Shown in pieces: positions 11,098 to 16,314 of a stretch of DNA of 43,964 bases. The number at the start of each line of letters is the position of its first letter. Positions within the stretch are counted from its first letter, which is position 1. This DNA comes from a virus (taxonomy: Duplodnaviria; Heunggongvirae; Uroviricota; Caudoviricetes): IMG/VR virus record IMGVR_UViG_3300025861_000004; one strand, 5' to 3'. The notes beneath the pieces were generated by a model. That model worked only from the letters and a program-made list of their open reading frames with translations. It did not search any database and had not been told where the DNA came from. The position numbers and the translations under genes are program-made.

Positions 11098-14000
11098 TTA
11101 TGGAGCTGACGGGTTCGCAGCTAGCGCCTGCGCCACGGCCTCCTGCGCGAGCTCGACGAAGAAGTTGGCCCCTGTGGAGTCGAAATCCGCGAGCCCTCCC
11201 GTCTCGTCCCCATCGACCATCTCGGCCGCCCGCATCTTGCGGGCGATGAGGCGCATCGCGACCTCCTGCATGGTGGCGCGATAGGCGAGGAAGACCACTC
11301 GGATCGGAGCCACCTGACCAAGCCGCCAGGAGCGGCGCACGGACTGTCGAAGGATGGGGACCGAGTACTCGGTCCCGTACTGGATGATCGTCTTGGCGAA
11401 GAGCAGGTCGAGGCCCGTCTCGACGAGACGGCCGTTGGTGAGCAGGACGTCGAACCCGCGCTTGCACGCCTTCTCCAGCCACTCCTCACGCTTCTCGGGG
11501 GACACGCTCGCGTCGAGCACTTCGACGCGGAATCCCTCAGCCTCTAGGGCCTCGCGGACACGCCCTCGCGCGTCCCTCTTGTGGGTCTGAGCGAAGAACA
11601 CGAGGACCTGTCGTCCCGCCTGCTTCTCCTCCCGTACGATGCGCACGACCTCCGCGTCCTTGGGTTGCGGGGTGCGCGGGAAGGCGGGGGCGCTCGCCAG
11701 GAACTCCCGGCGGCCCGACTCCTCGTCGGTCCCCCAGATCTCCTCGGCCTGCTCGGGGCAGTCGGGGTAGCCAAGGCACGTCTGGAGGTACTGGCCGAGC
11801 ACCTTGGGGTACTTGCGCATGACCTTCCGGACCTCCTTGGTGAGCTCAGCGATCGCCCGGAGGATCGCTGGGTCGTGGTCGACGATCCTCACCTCCTCGT
11901 CATACGGGGGGAGGTCCTGACGAAGGTCCTTGAGCTTGACGAATATCGTGTAGGGCAACAGCAGGGGGACCATCGCGGGGTTCATCCCCGGGATCTCCCT
12001 GGTCCGTCCGCCCGATCGCTTCCCTCCTCGACGGGTCCCGTAGCGGGAGGTCGAAGACTTGAGGTCATAGCGTGTCTCGAAGAGCCCGAAGTGCTGCGAG
12101 AAGCGCGCGCAGTCCTTGAACCCGTAGCGCTTACGGAACGAGGGCTCCACCTTGTAGAGCAGGTAGAACAGGGAGCTCGCGCGCCCGCCGTACAGGGTGC
12201 CGGTCATCGCGAGGATCTTGTGCGCGCCGGCCGCGAGGTCCTGTACGGCCCGCGACTGGTCGGACTCGGCACCAGCGAACTTGTGGCAGTTGGACACGAG
12301 GATCCCCTCGACGAAGTAGCAGTGCGTGTCCTCGACCTCCAGGTCGTAGACCCACTCCTCGTCGAGATTGACGGGTTCTACCGAGGTGACGCGGACGCCT
12401 CGGCATCCCGGATACGCATCAGGACGAGGTCGATGTTCGTCGTGACCTCCGAGTTCCAGAACCGCAGCACGGTCCACCCGAGCGCTTGGAGCATGCGACT
12501 CTTCCGTCGGTCCCGGTTGCGCTGCTTGCTCGTGTGGTGGGAGGCTCCGTCGCATTCCACCGCGATCTTCAGGGTCGGATGAATGAGGTCCACTCGCGCC
12601 ATTCGCCAGGATGGATCCATCGTCGGGATGCAGCCCTCCATCTCCCAGCCCAGACGGGCGTGCAGTAGCTTCTGCTCTGGTGTGAGGTATCCGTTCCCGC
12701 CCCTGCGACCGGAGAACGGAAGACCCTTTCGGGCTTCGCTCGTCTTCGCTCGGACCTCGGGACTTCTGTTGAGCTTCGTCATCCACTCCGACGACCGCTT
12801 CCTCGCCTCGGGCAGGCGCTGCGTTGTCCGCATGCGTTCCCGTGTCTGGGTGCGACGAGCGGGATTGCGCGCCCAGGCCGCAAGCTGGGTACACGACCGA
12901 CTGCAATAGCGCCGACCCCTCTTGCGTGCGGGAACCTGTTCCGTCTTCTGACACCACCCGCACGTCACAGGGAACCGACGCGTCGGACGCTTGGGTGTAG
13001 GTCTCGTCCGGCGACGAAGCTGCGCGCCGCAGATCGGGCTGCACGTCTTCTGCTCGCGCCTCGCCCGTCGCACGAACGGGAACTCGGACTTGCAAATAGG
13101 GCAAGCCTTGGTCGGCATCGTTGATCTCTATCAATACGTTTGTATTAGTGAGACACCGTGCCTTCCTGTAGTCAAGCTGGTCCTCCGTCCAGATCTTGTG
13201 GTCGTCGGTACAGACGATGGATCCCGTCTCATGTGAGACGCGCACCATGGGTTTGACCCTCGGCTTGCAAAGGGCACGCACGACTCGACGCAGCACGACC
13301 TGTCCGTCTCGTGTTCTCGACCACACGAGGTCACCGACCCGTATGTCCTTGATCGGGATGCGTCCTCTCGACGTACTTACTAGGCTGGCCCCAGGGAAAC
13401 ACTCGTCCACGACGAGCACGTACCGGCGCGCGTATCGCTGACTGATGTACTCGGCCAGCGGCCAGCGGGTCGATCCCTTGTCGTTCAGGGTCGTCACGGT
13501 CCAGAGGGGGGACCGGCAGCCGGCGCAGTACTGGTGGTTGTCGCGGTCGAACGCTGCGGCCGTGTAGCCCGTCGTTCGTCCGCACTGCGGGCAGGAAACG
13601 AGGCTCACGATCTGGCGCACCTGCTTGGTGATCGTCCTGCGCGCGTAGAAGGGAAGCGCGTCCATCGCCTCGTGGTCCGGGACCTCACGCATCCACGTCC
13701 TGGTGCGCAGCACGAAGGCAGGCTCCCATCGTGTTCCGAGCTTGGCGATCTCCTTGGAGATCACGAGGTAGCGAGCCGGCTTCGCCTCGGTTGACCGAAA
13801 GAATGCGTCCACGTCGGAGAGCTTCTTGCCCGCCACCGCAACGCCACGCTGGCCGGTGACCGCCTCGAACTCTCGGATCCACTTGCGTACCAGGTGCGCG
13901 GGACAGACCACGACGGTGCGGCGTGCCCCGTACAGCTCGACGGCGACGGCCGCCATCGAGGTGTTGTGGGTCACGATGTAGTCGTCGGTGACGTACAGGG

Positions 14001-16314
14001 AGTTACGGCTCGATACCCTGATGCACTGACACTCCTCGTCCCTCACGTAATCGACGTTCTCGATCGAGCGGGAGGGCCCGTACTTTGTTCCAGGTGAGTA
14101 GGTAGCCAGTTTTCGCGCGAGGCGGAAGGGCTGGATGTCCGGGGGAAGCGTGATGTAGAGACGGTACGCCGTCTGACCCTGCCGTCTCTCCCCGTTGTAG
14201 ACGTAGGTCGTCTCCTTGGGAGCCATGGTCACGACTCCCCCGAGGGATTGGGCGAGCTCGCGGACGTGACGGGCGAGCTGGATCGAGACGGACGTGTACT
14301 CGACGCCTGTCCCTCTCTCGTTCGCGATACCTCCGTCGGTGTCGAGTAGTCCCTGGAGGAGCGCGACACGTACCTCGACGCTGTTGTACAGGTACAGGGG
14401 AGGCACGAACTTGTGCTCGCTGCGCTTCCCGAACAGATCCAACCGACGCAGCGCCCGCGTGACGGGGTTGCGTTGCCCCCTCTCCACGACGAGAGAGTAG
14501 TCGTAGGGTGAGTTTTTTACGGGCGCGATCGATACGTTCGGAGGCAGTAAGGGTTCGATGAGTCGCAGGATCTGCTGGTCTCCCGTAGAGAGGCGAACAC
14601 TGCTCGTAAGCCCTCCGTCTCCAAGGAGTACGCCGAGCAGGTATGGGTCGAGGAGGACTGGAACCTCCTCGAACTCTACGGGAGCCACCAACGGGATGAA
14701 GTGTTGTCGGTTGCCGTTCGCGTGGTGCAGGCGTTCGCGGATCTCCCTGAGCGGTAGCACGCGAGGGGCTTGGTCGCGCCACTTGCGCAGGGGCGTGTTG
14801 ACGAGCCACAGGTGGTCGTCGCAGCACTCCGTCGAGGAACCGTCGCAGAACGTGACTCGGTAGACGGGCTTGACGCCCTGCGGGAATACGCCCTCGATCG
14901 TCGCCGTTCCCCCGTCGGGATCGATGACCGAATCTCCGACGCGCAAGGCCCCCATGGTTCGCCATCCCGTCGGAGTGAGCACCTTGGCGGTGAGCGGTTG
15001 GGCCTTCCCCGTCCCCATCTCTCCCGACAGGATGGCGGTCTTGTGGGGCTTGCGGGTCGGGCTCCCGCGCCACTGGAAGCAGACGGCGGCGGCGGCCTCC
15101 TTCTGGACCTGGAGGATCTCGGGCTGCGCGTGGCCGGGCAGAAGGCCGGGGGCGTGAAGCTGGACGAGGCGGTTCGCATAGGGTGCGAGGTTCCCGTCGA
15201 ACTCCGGCGTGTGGAGCTTGCGGGTGGCCTGCGCGAGGTCGGCGCCGTACTCCTGGAACCACGCGGCCGTCTTCTCCGGAGCGTCGCTCACGCGCCAGGC
15301 ATCGAAGTCACCCGTGCGGAGGTCGAGCACGGCCAGTCGGGAGGCGACGCGCTCGCGGTCGACGACCGTATCGTCTCCTCCTCCCGCCTTGTCCTCCTCG
15401 ACGATCGTGTCGGTGACCTTCTCGCTCGACCCCTTGATGAGGTAGCACCCGCGAATCTCGGCCCCGTTGAGCGCCCCAGCGGCGAGGAGCATCGCCTGGT
15501 GGCCCGGCCTGGGGGGCATGAGGGGCCGCTCGATCTTGTTGCCCGCGTGTCCGACGAGTGCGTCCCACGTGGGGGTCGCGTAGGCCCCGGTGGGGGCGGG
15601 GCCCCACGCGGGAGCCAGGTCGAACGGGTTTATCCCGTGGAGTGCGAAGAAGTCTAGGGAGGTGGCGCTGACGTCGATAACCTCCCCGTGCTTCGTGTAG
15701 GGTTCGTCCCCGATGACGGGGATGTGCTCCGTGTTGATCGGGTTGGCGTAGCTGTAGCCGGAGGAGCGACGTGCCAGCACGACGACCTGGTCGAACTTCT
15801 CCCTCTCGGGGAGGGGGTAGTCGAACACGCGCGCGCCGTAGTAGCGCCCCTGCATGAACTCCTTGAACTTCGTGTTTCGCAGGATGGCGCGGGGCACGAT
15901 GAGCACGAGGAGGCCGTTCGGCGCGAGGTGAACGGTCGCCGCCTGGAGGAACAGCACCTCCAGGCGCACCGAGTTTCCCTCTCCGTCCTGGCCCGCGTCG
16001 TACGGAGGGTTGCAGAACAGCACGTGGAAGCTCCCCTCGCTCGCGTGTAGCTGCGTGTAGCTGCCTCGCAGGCACTGTCGCATGCGGGGACGCGCGACTT
16101 CCGCACGCTCGGCGTCGAGCTCTACTCCGTACGCCTCGAATCCCCAGGCGGCGGCGAGCGCCGAGACCGCACGTCCTTCCCCCGCGCACACGTCGAGGAT
16201 ACGGCCCACCTGGCCCGCGGGTGCGCGCACGGTGATGGTACGCACGATCCGCGCGGTCACGTCGTCGGACGTGGGGTAGTAGAGCGCCTTGGCGATAGCG
16301 GCTAAGCGAGCCAT
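11098..16314 (-). CDS. Adenine methyltransferase (DUF6094-like)-SF2/SNF2-like helicase fusion precursor with two inteins (about 1020 aa after splicing)
   Basis: LDVCAGEG, NPPY; Walker A GEMGTGK|T and Walker B VVDE|CH, each split by an intein; helicase-C TGLDL and RRSWRLGQ. Confidence 0.88.
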   Translation of the reverse strand: MARLAAIAKALYYPTSDDVTARIVRTITVRAPAGQVGRILDVCAGEGRAVSALAAAWGFEAYGVELDAERAEVARPRMRQCLRGSYTQLHASEGSFHVLFCNPPYDAGQDGEGNSVRLEVLFLQAATVHLAPNGLLVLIVPRAILRNTKFKEFMQGRYYGARVFDYPLPEREKFDQVVVLARRSSGYSYANPINTEHIPVIGDEPYTKHGEVIDVSATSLDFFALHGINPFDLAPAWGPAPTGAYATPTWDALVGHAGNKIERPLMPPRPGHQAMLLAAGALNGAEIRGCYLIKGSSEKVTDTIVEEDKAGGGDDTVVDRERVASRLAVLDLRTGDFDAWRVSDAPEKTAAWFQEYGADLAQATRKLHTPEFDGNLAPYANRLVQLHAPGLLPGHAQPEILQVQKEAAAAVCFQWRGSPTRKPHKTAILSGEMGTGKAQPLTAKVLTPTGWRTMGALRVGDSVIDPDGGTATIEGVFPQGVKPVYRVTFCDGSSTECCDDHLWLVNTPLRKWRDQAPRVLPLREIRERLHHANGNRQHFIPLVAPVEFEEVPVLLDPYLLGVLLGDGGLTSSVRLSTGDQQILRLIEPLLPPNVSIAPVKNSPYDYSLVVERGQRNPVTRALRRLDLFGKRSEHKFVPPLYLYNSVEVRVALLQGLLDTDGGIANERGTGVEYTSVSIQLARHVRELAQSLGGVVTMAPKETTYVYNGERRQGQTAYRLYITLPPDIQPFRLARKLATYSPGTKYGPSRSIENVDYVRDEECQCIRVSSRNSLYVTDDYIVTHNTSMAAVAVELYGARRTVVVCPAHLVRKWIREFEAVTGQRGVAVAGKKLSDVDAFFRSTEAKPARYLVISKEIAKLGTRWEPAFVLRTRTWMREVPDHEAMDALPFYARRTITKQVRQIVSLVSCPQCGRTTGYTAAAFDRDNHQYCAGCRSPLWTVTTLNDKGSTRWPLAEYISQRYARRYVLVVDECFPGASLVSTSRGRIPIKDIRVGDLVWSRTRDGQVVLRRVVRALCKPRVKPMVRVSHETGSIVCTDDHKIWTEDQLDYRKARCLTNTNVLIEINDADQGLPYLQVRVPVRATGEARAEDVQPDLRRAASSPDETYTQASDASVPCDVRVVSEDGTGSRTQEGSALLQSVVYPACGLGAQSRSSHPDTGTHADNAAPARGEEAVVGVDDEAQQKSRGPSEDERSPKGSSVLRSQGRERIPHTRAEATARPSGLGDGGLHPDDGSILANGASGPHSSDPEDRGGMRRSLPPHEQAAQPGPTEESHAPSARVDRAAVLELGGHDEHRPRPDAYPGCRGVRVTSVEPVNLDEEWVYDLEVEDTHCYFVEGILVSNCHKFAGAESDQSRAVQDLAAGAHKILAMTGTLYGGRASSLFYLLYKVEPSFRKRYGFKDCARFSQHFGLFETRYDLKSSTSRYGTRRGGKRSGGRTREIPGMNPAMVPLLLPYTIFVKLKDLRQDLPPYDEEVRIVDHDPAILRAIAELTKEVRKVMRKYPKVLGQYLQTCLGYPDCPEQAEEIWGTDEESGRREFLASAPAFPRTPQPKDAEVVRIVREEKQAGRQVLVFFAQTHKRDARGRVREALEAEGFRVEVLDASVSPEKREEWLEKACKRGFDVLLTNGRLVETGLDLLFAKTIIQYGTEYSVPILRQSVRRSWRLGQVAPIRVVFLAYRATMQEVAMRLIARKMRAAEMVDGDETGGLADFDSTGANFFVELAQEAVAQALAANPSAP
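11103..11109 (-). promoter_or_regulatory. TCAGCTC promoter-like motif
   Basis: ATG 11072 at +31; -10 slot TCGAC. Confidence 0.75.
12289..13401 (-). mobile_element. Intein 2 (371 aa) in helicase Walker B, containing an out-of-frame endonuclease gene
   Basis: Starts CFPGASLV, has block B CTDDHKIW, ends VYDLEVEDTHCYFVEGILVSN, +1 residue Cys. Confidence 0.88.
12378..13118 (-). CDS. Zn-finger plus DUF559/Vsr-like endonuclease, nested in an alternative frame of intein 2
   Basis: CPIC, CSPIC, CGWC, CSRSC motifs; VDLIHPTLKIAVECDGASHH...LQALGWTVLRFWNSEV; own ATG with in-frame TGA TAG stops just upstream. Confidence 0.85.
   Translation of the reverse strand: MPTKACPICKSEFPFVRRARREQKTCSPICGAQLRRRTRPTPKRPTRRFPVTCGWCQKTEQVPARKRGRRYCSRSCTQLAAWARNPARRTQTRERMRTTQRLPEARKRSSEWMTKLNRSPEVRAKTSEARKGLPFSGRRGGNGYLTPEQKLLHARLGWEMEGCIPTMDPSWRMARVDLIHPTLKIAVECDGASHHTSKQRNRDRRKSRMLQALGWTVLRFWNSEVTTNIDLVLMRIRDAEASASPR
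13963..15003 (-). mobile_element. Intein 1 (347 aa), Ala-start class-3-type, with LAGLIDADG endonuclease, in Walker A
   Basis: AQPLTAKVLTP...DDHLW...ECQCIRV...IVTHN|T; LLGVLLGDG and LQGLLDTDG. Confidence 0.92.

Follow-up and report, generated by a model that had tools for sequence, protein, structure and literature searches.

Gosselin, Arsenault and Gogarten described non-canonical inteins of actinobacteriophages in which the endonuclease occupies a separate, overlapping open reading frame (ORF) between the splicing blocks (10.1101/2025.01.02.630785). In their set, VSR-like endonucleases occur only in antisense orientation, and an endonuclease VII-like gene, in frame 3, is the example on the same strand; the authors propose that such inteins originate when a free-standing endonuclease gene invades an intein, and present evidence that transfer continues. 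Here we examine an intein of this general form in a 43,964-nt stretch of DNA from a Caudoviricetes virus (IMG/VR record IMGVR_UViG_3300025861_000004; we refer to the whole stretch as the window). The intein interrupts the helicase part of a methyltransferase–helicase gene, and a Vsr/DUF559-type endonuclease gene lies over its middle on the same strand, in the +1 frame. We consider it highly probable that the two form a composite mobile element: a class 1 intein with a separately encoded homing endonuclease overprinted on its middle.

Several other systems combine some of these features. Vsr-type enzymes were first tied to inteins by fractured genes, in which a free-standing Vsr-like endonuclease gene lies between the halves of a split intein (Dassa et al. 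2009, PMC2677866). I-Bth0305I, found in a group I intron (2011, PMC3239194; PDB 3r3p), is bipartite: its N-terminal part binds DNA and its C-terminal part is a Vsr-like nuclease. ShiLan (2025, PMC11855218) provides a homing endonuclease gene overprinted on a stop-free host ORF. A 2026 preprint (10.64898/2026.09.14.751524) reports a cyanobacterial dnaX intein with an out-of-frame homing endonuclease. Antisense LAGLIDADG endonucleases in inteins are attributed to Gorbalenya (1998) and Gogarten (2002), with a Synechocystis dnaX case in antisense.

The locus in the window shares with the actinobacteriophage inteins a contiguous, presumably splicing intein and a separate overlapping endonuclease ORF. 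It differs in that the gene is of the Vsr/DUF559 type, carries zinc ribbons, and lies on the sense strand in the +1 frame, and in that the setting is helicase Walker B sites, a jumbo phage, and many bacterial phyla. Like the fractured genes, it associates a Vsr-like endonuclease with inteins in phage DNA-metabolism genes, and in both cases the downstream intein half shares sequence with the 3' end of the endonuclease gene; there, however, the host gene is divided into two ORFs, whereas here a single host frame runs on through the whole endonuclease gene, held open by selection. I-Bth0305I is the best structural match of the nested protein, with the same bipartite build and invariant E, D, H, and D residues in a compatible order, but the nested protein resides in an intein, has zinc ribbons, and is nearer by sequence to a DUF559 protein (3hrl). 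As in the dnaX intein reported in that preprint, the endonuclease lies outside the intein's frame, although the host gene is another one. ShiLan lacks a splicing domain, and its read-through product stays as a loop in the host protein; here a complete intein would remove it. A preliminary description of the window, made from the sequence alone, had not recognized this as a standard intein architecture. It is indeed non-canonical, but the general form was already published (10.1101/2025.01.02.630785, the dnaX preprint, and antisense cases since 1998). Our literature search found no description of a sense-strand, +1-frame gene of the Vsr/DUF559 type over a contiguous intein, and we regard this version as a variant of a principle that is the same as in the published overlapping-endonuclease inteins. 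What the window adds is an exact empty allele beside the occupied one, Gly in place of Cys at the +1 position, and a codon rule by which the register can be maintained cheaply.

The host protein has DUF6094 at its N terminus (residues 3-184) and Helicase_C at its C terminus (1556-1666), according to Pfam. Its intein-less homologues measure ~1030-1130 amino acids, and both inserts of the 1738-codon ORF fall in the helicase part. The insert considered here, intein 2, runs from Cys1 (TGT, 13401-13399) to Asn371 (AAC, 12291-12289) between the flanks VVDE and CHKF, splitting the DExH box (Table 1). Cys1 and the first C-extein residue, Cys+1 (12288-12286), are the nucleophiles required of a class 1 intein, and 30 related loci likewise have Cys1 and a +1 Cys or Ser. 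Pfam matches to the Hint domain and the intein splicing blocks are confined to residues 1-75 and 350-371. Block B reads CTDDH, and C1, H68, and N371 are invariant in our intein alignment (A2). The penultimate residue is Ser, which is atypical for class 1; most relatives have His at this position and some have Ser.

When the intein was modeled in the host frame with AlphaFold from a 28-sequence alignment, only residues 1-97 and 331-371 were predicted confidently (pLDDT, predicted local distance difference test, 92-97); residues 101-325 scored 32-58 and lacked secondary structure. Foldseek matched the two modeled ends to the mini-inteins DnaX, DnaE, DnaB, gp41-1, and NrdJ-1 (root-mean-square deviation 1.4-2.6 Å, E 1e-5 to 1e-4). 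The intervening host-frame sequence is rich in Ala, Gly, Ser, Pro, Arg, Asp, and Glu and nearly devoid of hydrophobic residues. Its earlier characterization as about 245 low-complexity residues without a stop corresponds to a disordered, unconserved linker. The models indicate that intein 2 is a mini-intein (HINT) fold carrying a disordered linker of ~230-235 residues. From the intact residues, together with the selection that keeps the host frame open, we infer that the protein splices.

The nested ORF begins on the second base of a host codon, which defines the +1 frame. Its ATG (13118-13116) falls on intein codons 95-96 (D-A) and its TAG on codons 341-342 (V-E); a TGA and a TAG in the nested frame precede the ATG by 9-15 nt. 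The coordinates in the preliminary description were all exact.

Table 1. Coordinates of the host gene, intein 2, and the nested gene in the window
Feature	Position	Strand	Basis
Host gene: fusion of a DUF6094-type methyltransferase and a superfamily 2 (SF2) helicase, 1738 amino acids, two inteins inside	11098-16314	-	ORF list, translation, Pfam
Intein 2: 371 codons, in helicase motif II, DE/CH split; Cys1, block B T..H (H68), Asn371, +1 Cys	12289-13401	-	sequence, Pfam Hint/Intein_splicing, TIGR01443, alignment, AlphaFold
N-terminal splicing half: intein residues 1-97, host frame	13111-13401	-	pLDDT 92-97, beta strands to residue 93, conserved in 28 relatives
Read-through linker: intein residues 98-332, unconserved, predicted disordered, stop-free	12406-13110	-	pLDDT 32-58, ratio of nonsynonymous to synonymous substitution rates (dN/dS) ~0.9-1.9, composition, stop test
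C-terminal splicing half: intein residues 333-371, first 10 codons overlapping the tail of the nested gene	12289-12405	-	pLDDT 92-97, four strands, TIGR01443 intein_Cterm
N-extein side of the insertion (putative homing) site, encoding VLVVDE	13402-13416	-	intein-less contig junctions, runs X5/X7
Insertion site, C-extein side: codes for CHKFA; intein-less allele with Gly for the +1 Cys	12274-12288	-	intein-less contigs
Nested putative homing-endonuclease gene: +1 frame, 246 codons + TAG	12378-13118	-	ORF, DUF559, pLDDT 90.1, dN/dS 0.13-0.30
Two predicted Cys4 zinc ribbons: C6/C9/C26/C30 and C53/C56/C72/C76	12891-13103	-	alignment, beta hairpins in model
Helical region: nested residues 77-135, recurring NPM..PE.R.K motif, NUMOD-like	12714-12890	-	helices 74-130 in model, alignment
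Predicted Vsr/EDxHD-type nuclease domain: nested residues 147-243	12390-12680	-	invariant columns, PDB sequence matches, Foldseek
Patch before the nested ATG: AT-rich, little structure, two stops in the nested frame (13133-13128), weak Shine-Dalgarno-like element GAGA	13119-13150	-	minimum free energy (MFE) scan, relatives' Shine-Dalgarno sites, promoter scans

The nested product matches DUF559 (PF04480) with 51.4 bits against a curated cut-off of 20.6 (E 1e-13), and all 28 relatives match it as well; together with the two zinc ribbons, this bears out the earlier reading of the neighboring frame as a Zn-finger/DUF559 endonuclease. All four Cys of the second ribbon are invariant in the alignment of nested proteins (A1), three relatives give zf-FCS matches, and the ribbons probably bind DNA. 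The helices that follow resemble NUMOD elements, a likeness we draw tentatively from the comparison in PMC3239194. The candidate catalytic residues E188, D190, H194, and D203 are invariant in the 28 sequences of A1, and their order fits the composite EDxHD motif (PMC3239194). In pairwise alignments, E188 and D203 fall on the E and D of 3r3p, and D203 falls on a conserved Asp of the Vsr chains.

The AlphaFold model of the nested protein (mean pLDDT 90.1, 28-sequence alignment) shows both zinc ribbons as hairpins, along with four long helices and an alpha/beta domain. Its top four PDB rows in Foldseek, all at probability 1.00, were two chains of 3r3p (the I-Bth0305I catalytic domain), 3hrl (a DUF559 protein), and 1vsr (E. 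coli Vsr), with template modeling (TM) scores by target of 0.42-0.69 and E-values of only 2e-3 to 9e-3. Sequence profiles favored 3hrl (E 1.3e-15), the match to 3r3p being marginal (E 0.13-0.16). On these comparisons the nested product is predicted to have a Vsr-type alpha/beta nuclease fold.

Searches with the nested protein recovered 11 loci in bacterial genomes or metagenome-assembled genomes (MAGs) and 21-23 viral contigs. The bacterial loci belong to Chloroflexota (including the isolate Longilinea arvoryzae), Patescibacteria, Hyphomicrobium, Sulfuricella, Myxococcales, and Acidobacteriaceae. Every locus shows the same layout: an endonuclease ORF of 200-360 codons in frame f, frame f-1 open for ~450-1700 codons where the contig holds the gene, and a third frame full of stops, at a local GC content of 28-69%. 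At 30 loci intein boundaries could be defined (C1...(H/S)N followed by Cys or Ser), and the insertion points (DE|C, DE|S, DEAA|C, DEAQ(R)|C, and DEAHHA|C) lie in several ATPase gene families, from which it follows that the element moved between Walker B sites. The remaining genome-collection matches (L013, L015-L082) cover nearly always residues 145-246 only, mostly the last 60, and the three we checked (L013, L015, and L016) had no long open host frame. Beyond the nested gene itself, the window's own assembly contains just a weak DUF559 match within a 1038-aa ORF on another contig (L002), and no second copy. The sampled relatives are probably one branch of a larger family.

Both frames are under selection. 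In alignments guided by the nested protein, the nested frame had a pairwise dN/dS of 0.13-0.30 before the GWTVLRFWN motif and the host frame one of 0.9-1.9, ratios that in overlapping frames serve only as relative measures; this per-frame comparison had been suggested in the preliminary description. After the motif the pattern is reversed in many lineages (host frame 0.2-0.4, nested frame ~1), and RVD.VEILE, the host-frame sequence there, forms the first strand of the C-terminal splicing half. In the lineage of the window and its nearest relative, L003, this strand lies mostly after the nested stop, and only ~10 codons are shared by two folded parts.

L003, from a Chloroflexi MAG, is the closest match to the nested gene (50% identity). 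Its N-terminal intein half and the start of its endonuclease gene are replaced by an opposite-strand ORF (2013-2975) with an apparent likeness to transposases; the long frame is open there, partly by chance at 69% GC. Two further loci (L103:1853-2392 and L104:15-554) hold 180-codon mini-inteins at DE|CH with an 80-codon remnant of the endonuclease frame. The homing cycle seems here to have reached a late stage, in which the endonuclease has decayed and the splicing domain has been kept.

The openness of the host frame provides a second line of evidence for selection on both readings. We shuffled the synonymous codons of the nested gene, preserving its protein and codon usage, and counted stops in the host frame. 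The window has none against 6.3 expected, and only 0.04% of shuffles were stop-free (P=0.0004). None of the 32 loci tested has a host-frame stop, with 4-14 expected per locus; the openness of both frames, which the preliminary description had proposed to look for in homologues, thus extends to all 31 relatives. We rejected the explanation that the ORF arose by chance on the strength of this shuffling test, and the earlier remark that third-position GC bias makes the openness only moderately surprising does not hold. The codon pattern behind these figures is simple. In the +1 register, a host-frame stop arises only if a nested codon with T as its third base is followed by one that begins with AA, AG, or GA. 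Third-base T occurs in the window at 0/52 such at-risk positions and at 16% of the others; pooled across loci, the counts are 0/2121 at risk and 1418/6168 elsewhere. The change from NNT to NNC is always synonymous, and the nuclease therefore pays nothing for the removal of any such stop.

Population-level evidence of mobility came from contigs of four other runs, from four other studies, which we compared over 11900-13800 and which cover most of the intein; the run records list activated or bioreactor sludge, wastewater, and one set labeled marine. In runs X5 (depth 16.5) and X7, contigs join 12285 to 13403 with four letters between, a net loss of exactly 1113 nt, and translate to an intein-less allele, VVDE-G-HKF. 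This allele has Gly (GGG) in place of the +1 Cys (12286-12288) and encodes the adjacent Glu as GAA instead of GAG (near 13402). X5 also yielded a contig that bears the intein and differs from the window 10 times in 1012 nt (99% identical), and both alleles therefore occur in one sample. Six substitutions in the overlap were listed, each seen in two or three runs, with 63 more differences along the stretch outside this listing: five of the six alter the linker but leave the nuclease sequence unchanged, and one does the reverse.

C-extein homologues were found by an alignment-based search, a single-protein search of viral contigs having matched nothing. Among the 86 loci, 79 have a contiguous DExH box (12 DECH, the rest mostly DEVH or DESH) and seven carry the intein. 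L186, which lies on a viral contig of 206 kb and is the nearest homologue of the window's gene (59% identity), is without either intein. In an extein tree obtained by a quick rather than a careful maximum-likelihood search, the eight intein-bearing rows require 6-7 gains or losses and are no more clustered than shuffled labels. The presence/absence polymorphism and the scattered distribution point to a mobile element. The methyltransferase–helicase family itself is very common in Anaerolineae (L106-L185); a single MAG often contains several copies, as on many contigs of CAYOHX01, and this suggests that the family rides a mobile element or prophage.

The start of the nested gene bears on how it would be expressed. 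The 50 nt centered on its ATG have 44% GC against 64% in the surroundings, and their MFE is -7.2 kcal/mol against -14.5 +/- 3.3 kcal/mol. This is the least structured window in the intein, and 1% of windows are as weak. The start window is likewise weaker than the local mean in 30/31 relatives, many of which carry a GGAGG-like element 6-10 nt before the nested ATG; the window has only GAGA. The preliminary description had noted the AT-rich patch and suggested an internal promoter. The base composition stands, but we dropped the promoter: a scan of 12250-13500 found no sigma-70-like match, and the phage's own bipartite promoter (TCAGCTC-N17-CGAC, scanned with a spacer of N15-19) has eight copies in the window and none inside the intein. 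The patch looks instead like an unstructured translation-initiation region. The most economical reading, and a likely one, is that the nested ATG is used by internal initiation on the helicase mRNA.

Taken together, these results are consistent with the following model. The methyltransferase–helicase would be translated straight through the insert; intein residues 1-97 and 333-371 would fold as a mini-intein (HINT), splice out, and restore the DECH box. The ~235 residues between them would be the host-frame reading of the nuclease gene, a disordered tether. The +1 frame would yield a 246-aa enzyme with two zinc ribbons, NUMOD-like helices, and a Vsr/EDxHD nuclease domain, most probably started at its own ATG, in the AT-rich, unstructured patch just after two in-frame stops. 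This nuclease may cut intein-less alleles at the Walker B site, the VVDE-G-HKF allele being its candidate target, and repair would copy the whole element in. Selection on the helicase would keep the host frame stop-free. The preliminary proposal that the mobility nuclease is a separate overlapping gene has gained from the conserved layout, selection in two frames, the predicted folds, the intein-less allele, and the lack of indels.

Several points weigh against this composite element. We infer the production of either protein. The Shine-Dalgarno-like element in the window is weak, and the scans found no promoter. The penultimate Ser, in place of the usual His, may slow Asn cyclization. The only intein-less allele seen has Gly at +1, and homing into it would have to co-convert that codon. 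The relatives were retrieved through the WTVLRFWN peptide, which biases the sample to one branch; the relative nature of the dN/dS values and the quick tree search count here too.

An unlikely alternative is that the nested gene survives only as a relic in a fixed intein that still splices: its endonuclease would be unexpressed or inactive, with a frame left open simply for want of time to decay. The weak ribosome-binding site and the lack of a promoter match would suit a relic, and decayed stages do exist in the family, namely the 180-aa mini-inteins of L103 and L104 with their 80-codon remnant. Yet the nested gene shows a dN/dS of 0.26 against L003, its nearest relative, and five of the six listed recent population substitutions spare the nuclease. 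All invariant residues of the putative catalytic and zinc-binding sites are intact and the model is confident, and targets are available, since the intein-less allele co-occurs with the intein-bearing one.

Much less probable is production of the nuclease as a fusion, by programmed +1 ribosomal frameshifting from the intein frame rather than by independent initiation. Both frames do lie on one strand and presumably on one mRNA, but two nested-frame stops stand 9-15 nt before the ATG. The relatives examined likewise have an upstream stop within a few codons and an ATG heading the conserved protein, often with a GGAGG-like site, and we noticed no slippery motif.

We give almost no credence to a sequencing or assembly artifact in which two compensating indels mask an ordinary in-frame endonuclease domain, a case that the preliminary description had named as refuting its reading, since the contigs of the four other runs show no indel, paired or single, within 12289-13401, and more than 30 independent assemblies share the two-frame register at 27-52% protein identity. 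A fractured gene as in Dassa et al. 2009, with two host polypeptides trans-splicing through a split intein around a free-standing endonuclease gene, shares the Vsr-like superfamily and the type of host gene but is just as improbable, because the host frame is without a stop across the intein here and in 31 relatives, selection keeps it open, and a restart signal for the C-terminal half is absent. The sole indel pair in the compared region lies outside the intein: a contig of run X4 (~95% identical) has a 1-base insertion and a 1-base deletion 5 nt apart in the N-extein (13574/13579), a local compensated frameshift affecting about two codons.

The composite element shares its gene with another intein. 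This first intein (347 codons, 13963-15003, minus strand) lies in the Walker A motif (GTGK|...THN|TS) and contains an in-frame LAGLIDADG endonuclease; it starts with Ala, neither Cys nor Ser, and may be a class 3 or other non-class-1 intein. With two inteins in the gene, the helicase requires two splicing events. Another helicase with a related intein (L099) has an ...IVTHN|T junction upstream of 2751, which suggests a second intein in its Walker A region and thus a recurring double-intein arrangement. The window's gene places an overprinted intein and a canonical in-frame LAGLIDADG intein side by side.

This locus provides a clean natural case of two proteins selected in two frames of one DNA stretch, with the upkeep of the overlap explained by a simple codon rule. 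It supports the view that the splicing domain comes first and the endonuclease invades later, and it links contiguous inteins to the fractured-gene and split-intein arrangements. Annotators should avoid labeling such inteins "degenerate" or "endonuclease-less." Surveys of inteins in the host frame only will miss a whole endonuclease family. The element may also supply a compact mini-intein as well as a candidate site-specific nuclease, for which the co-occurring intein-less allele would give the natural target. We regard it as an evenly balanced question whether the +1 register is a stable design rule and not an accident of insertion, being the same-strand arrangement in which each host-frame stop can be removed silently. 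If it is such a rule, one Vsr-type lineage could stay overprinted on inteins over the long term, hopping between the Walker B sites of ATPase genes that are unrelated, across phages and many bacterial phyla, and overprinting would be an end state rather than a brief passage toward in-frame fusions or split inteins.

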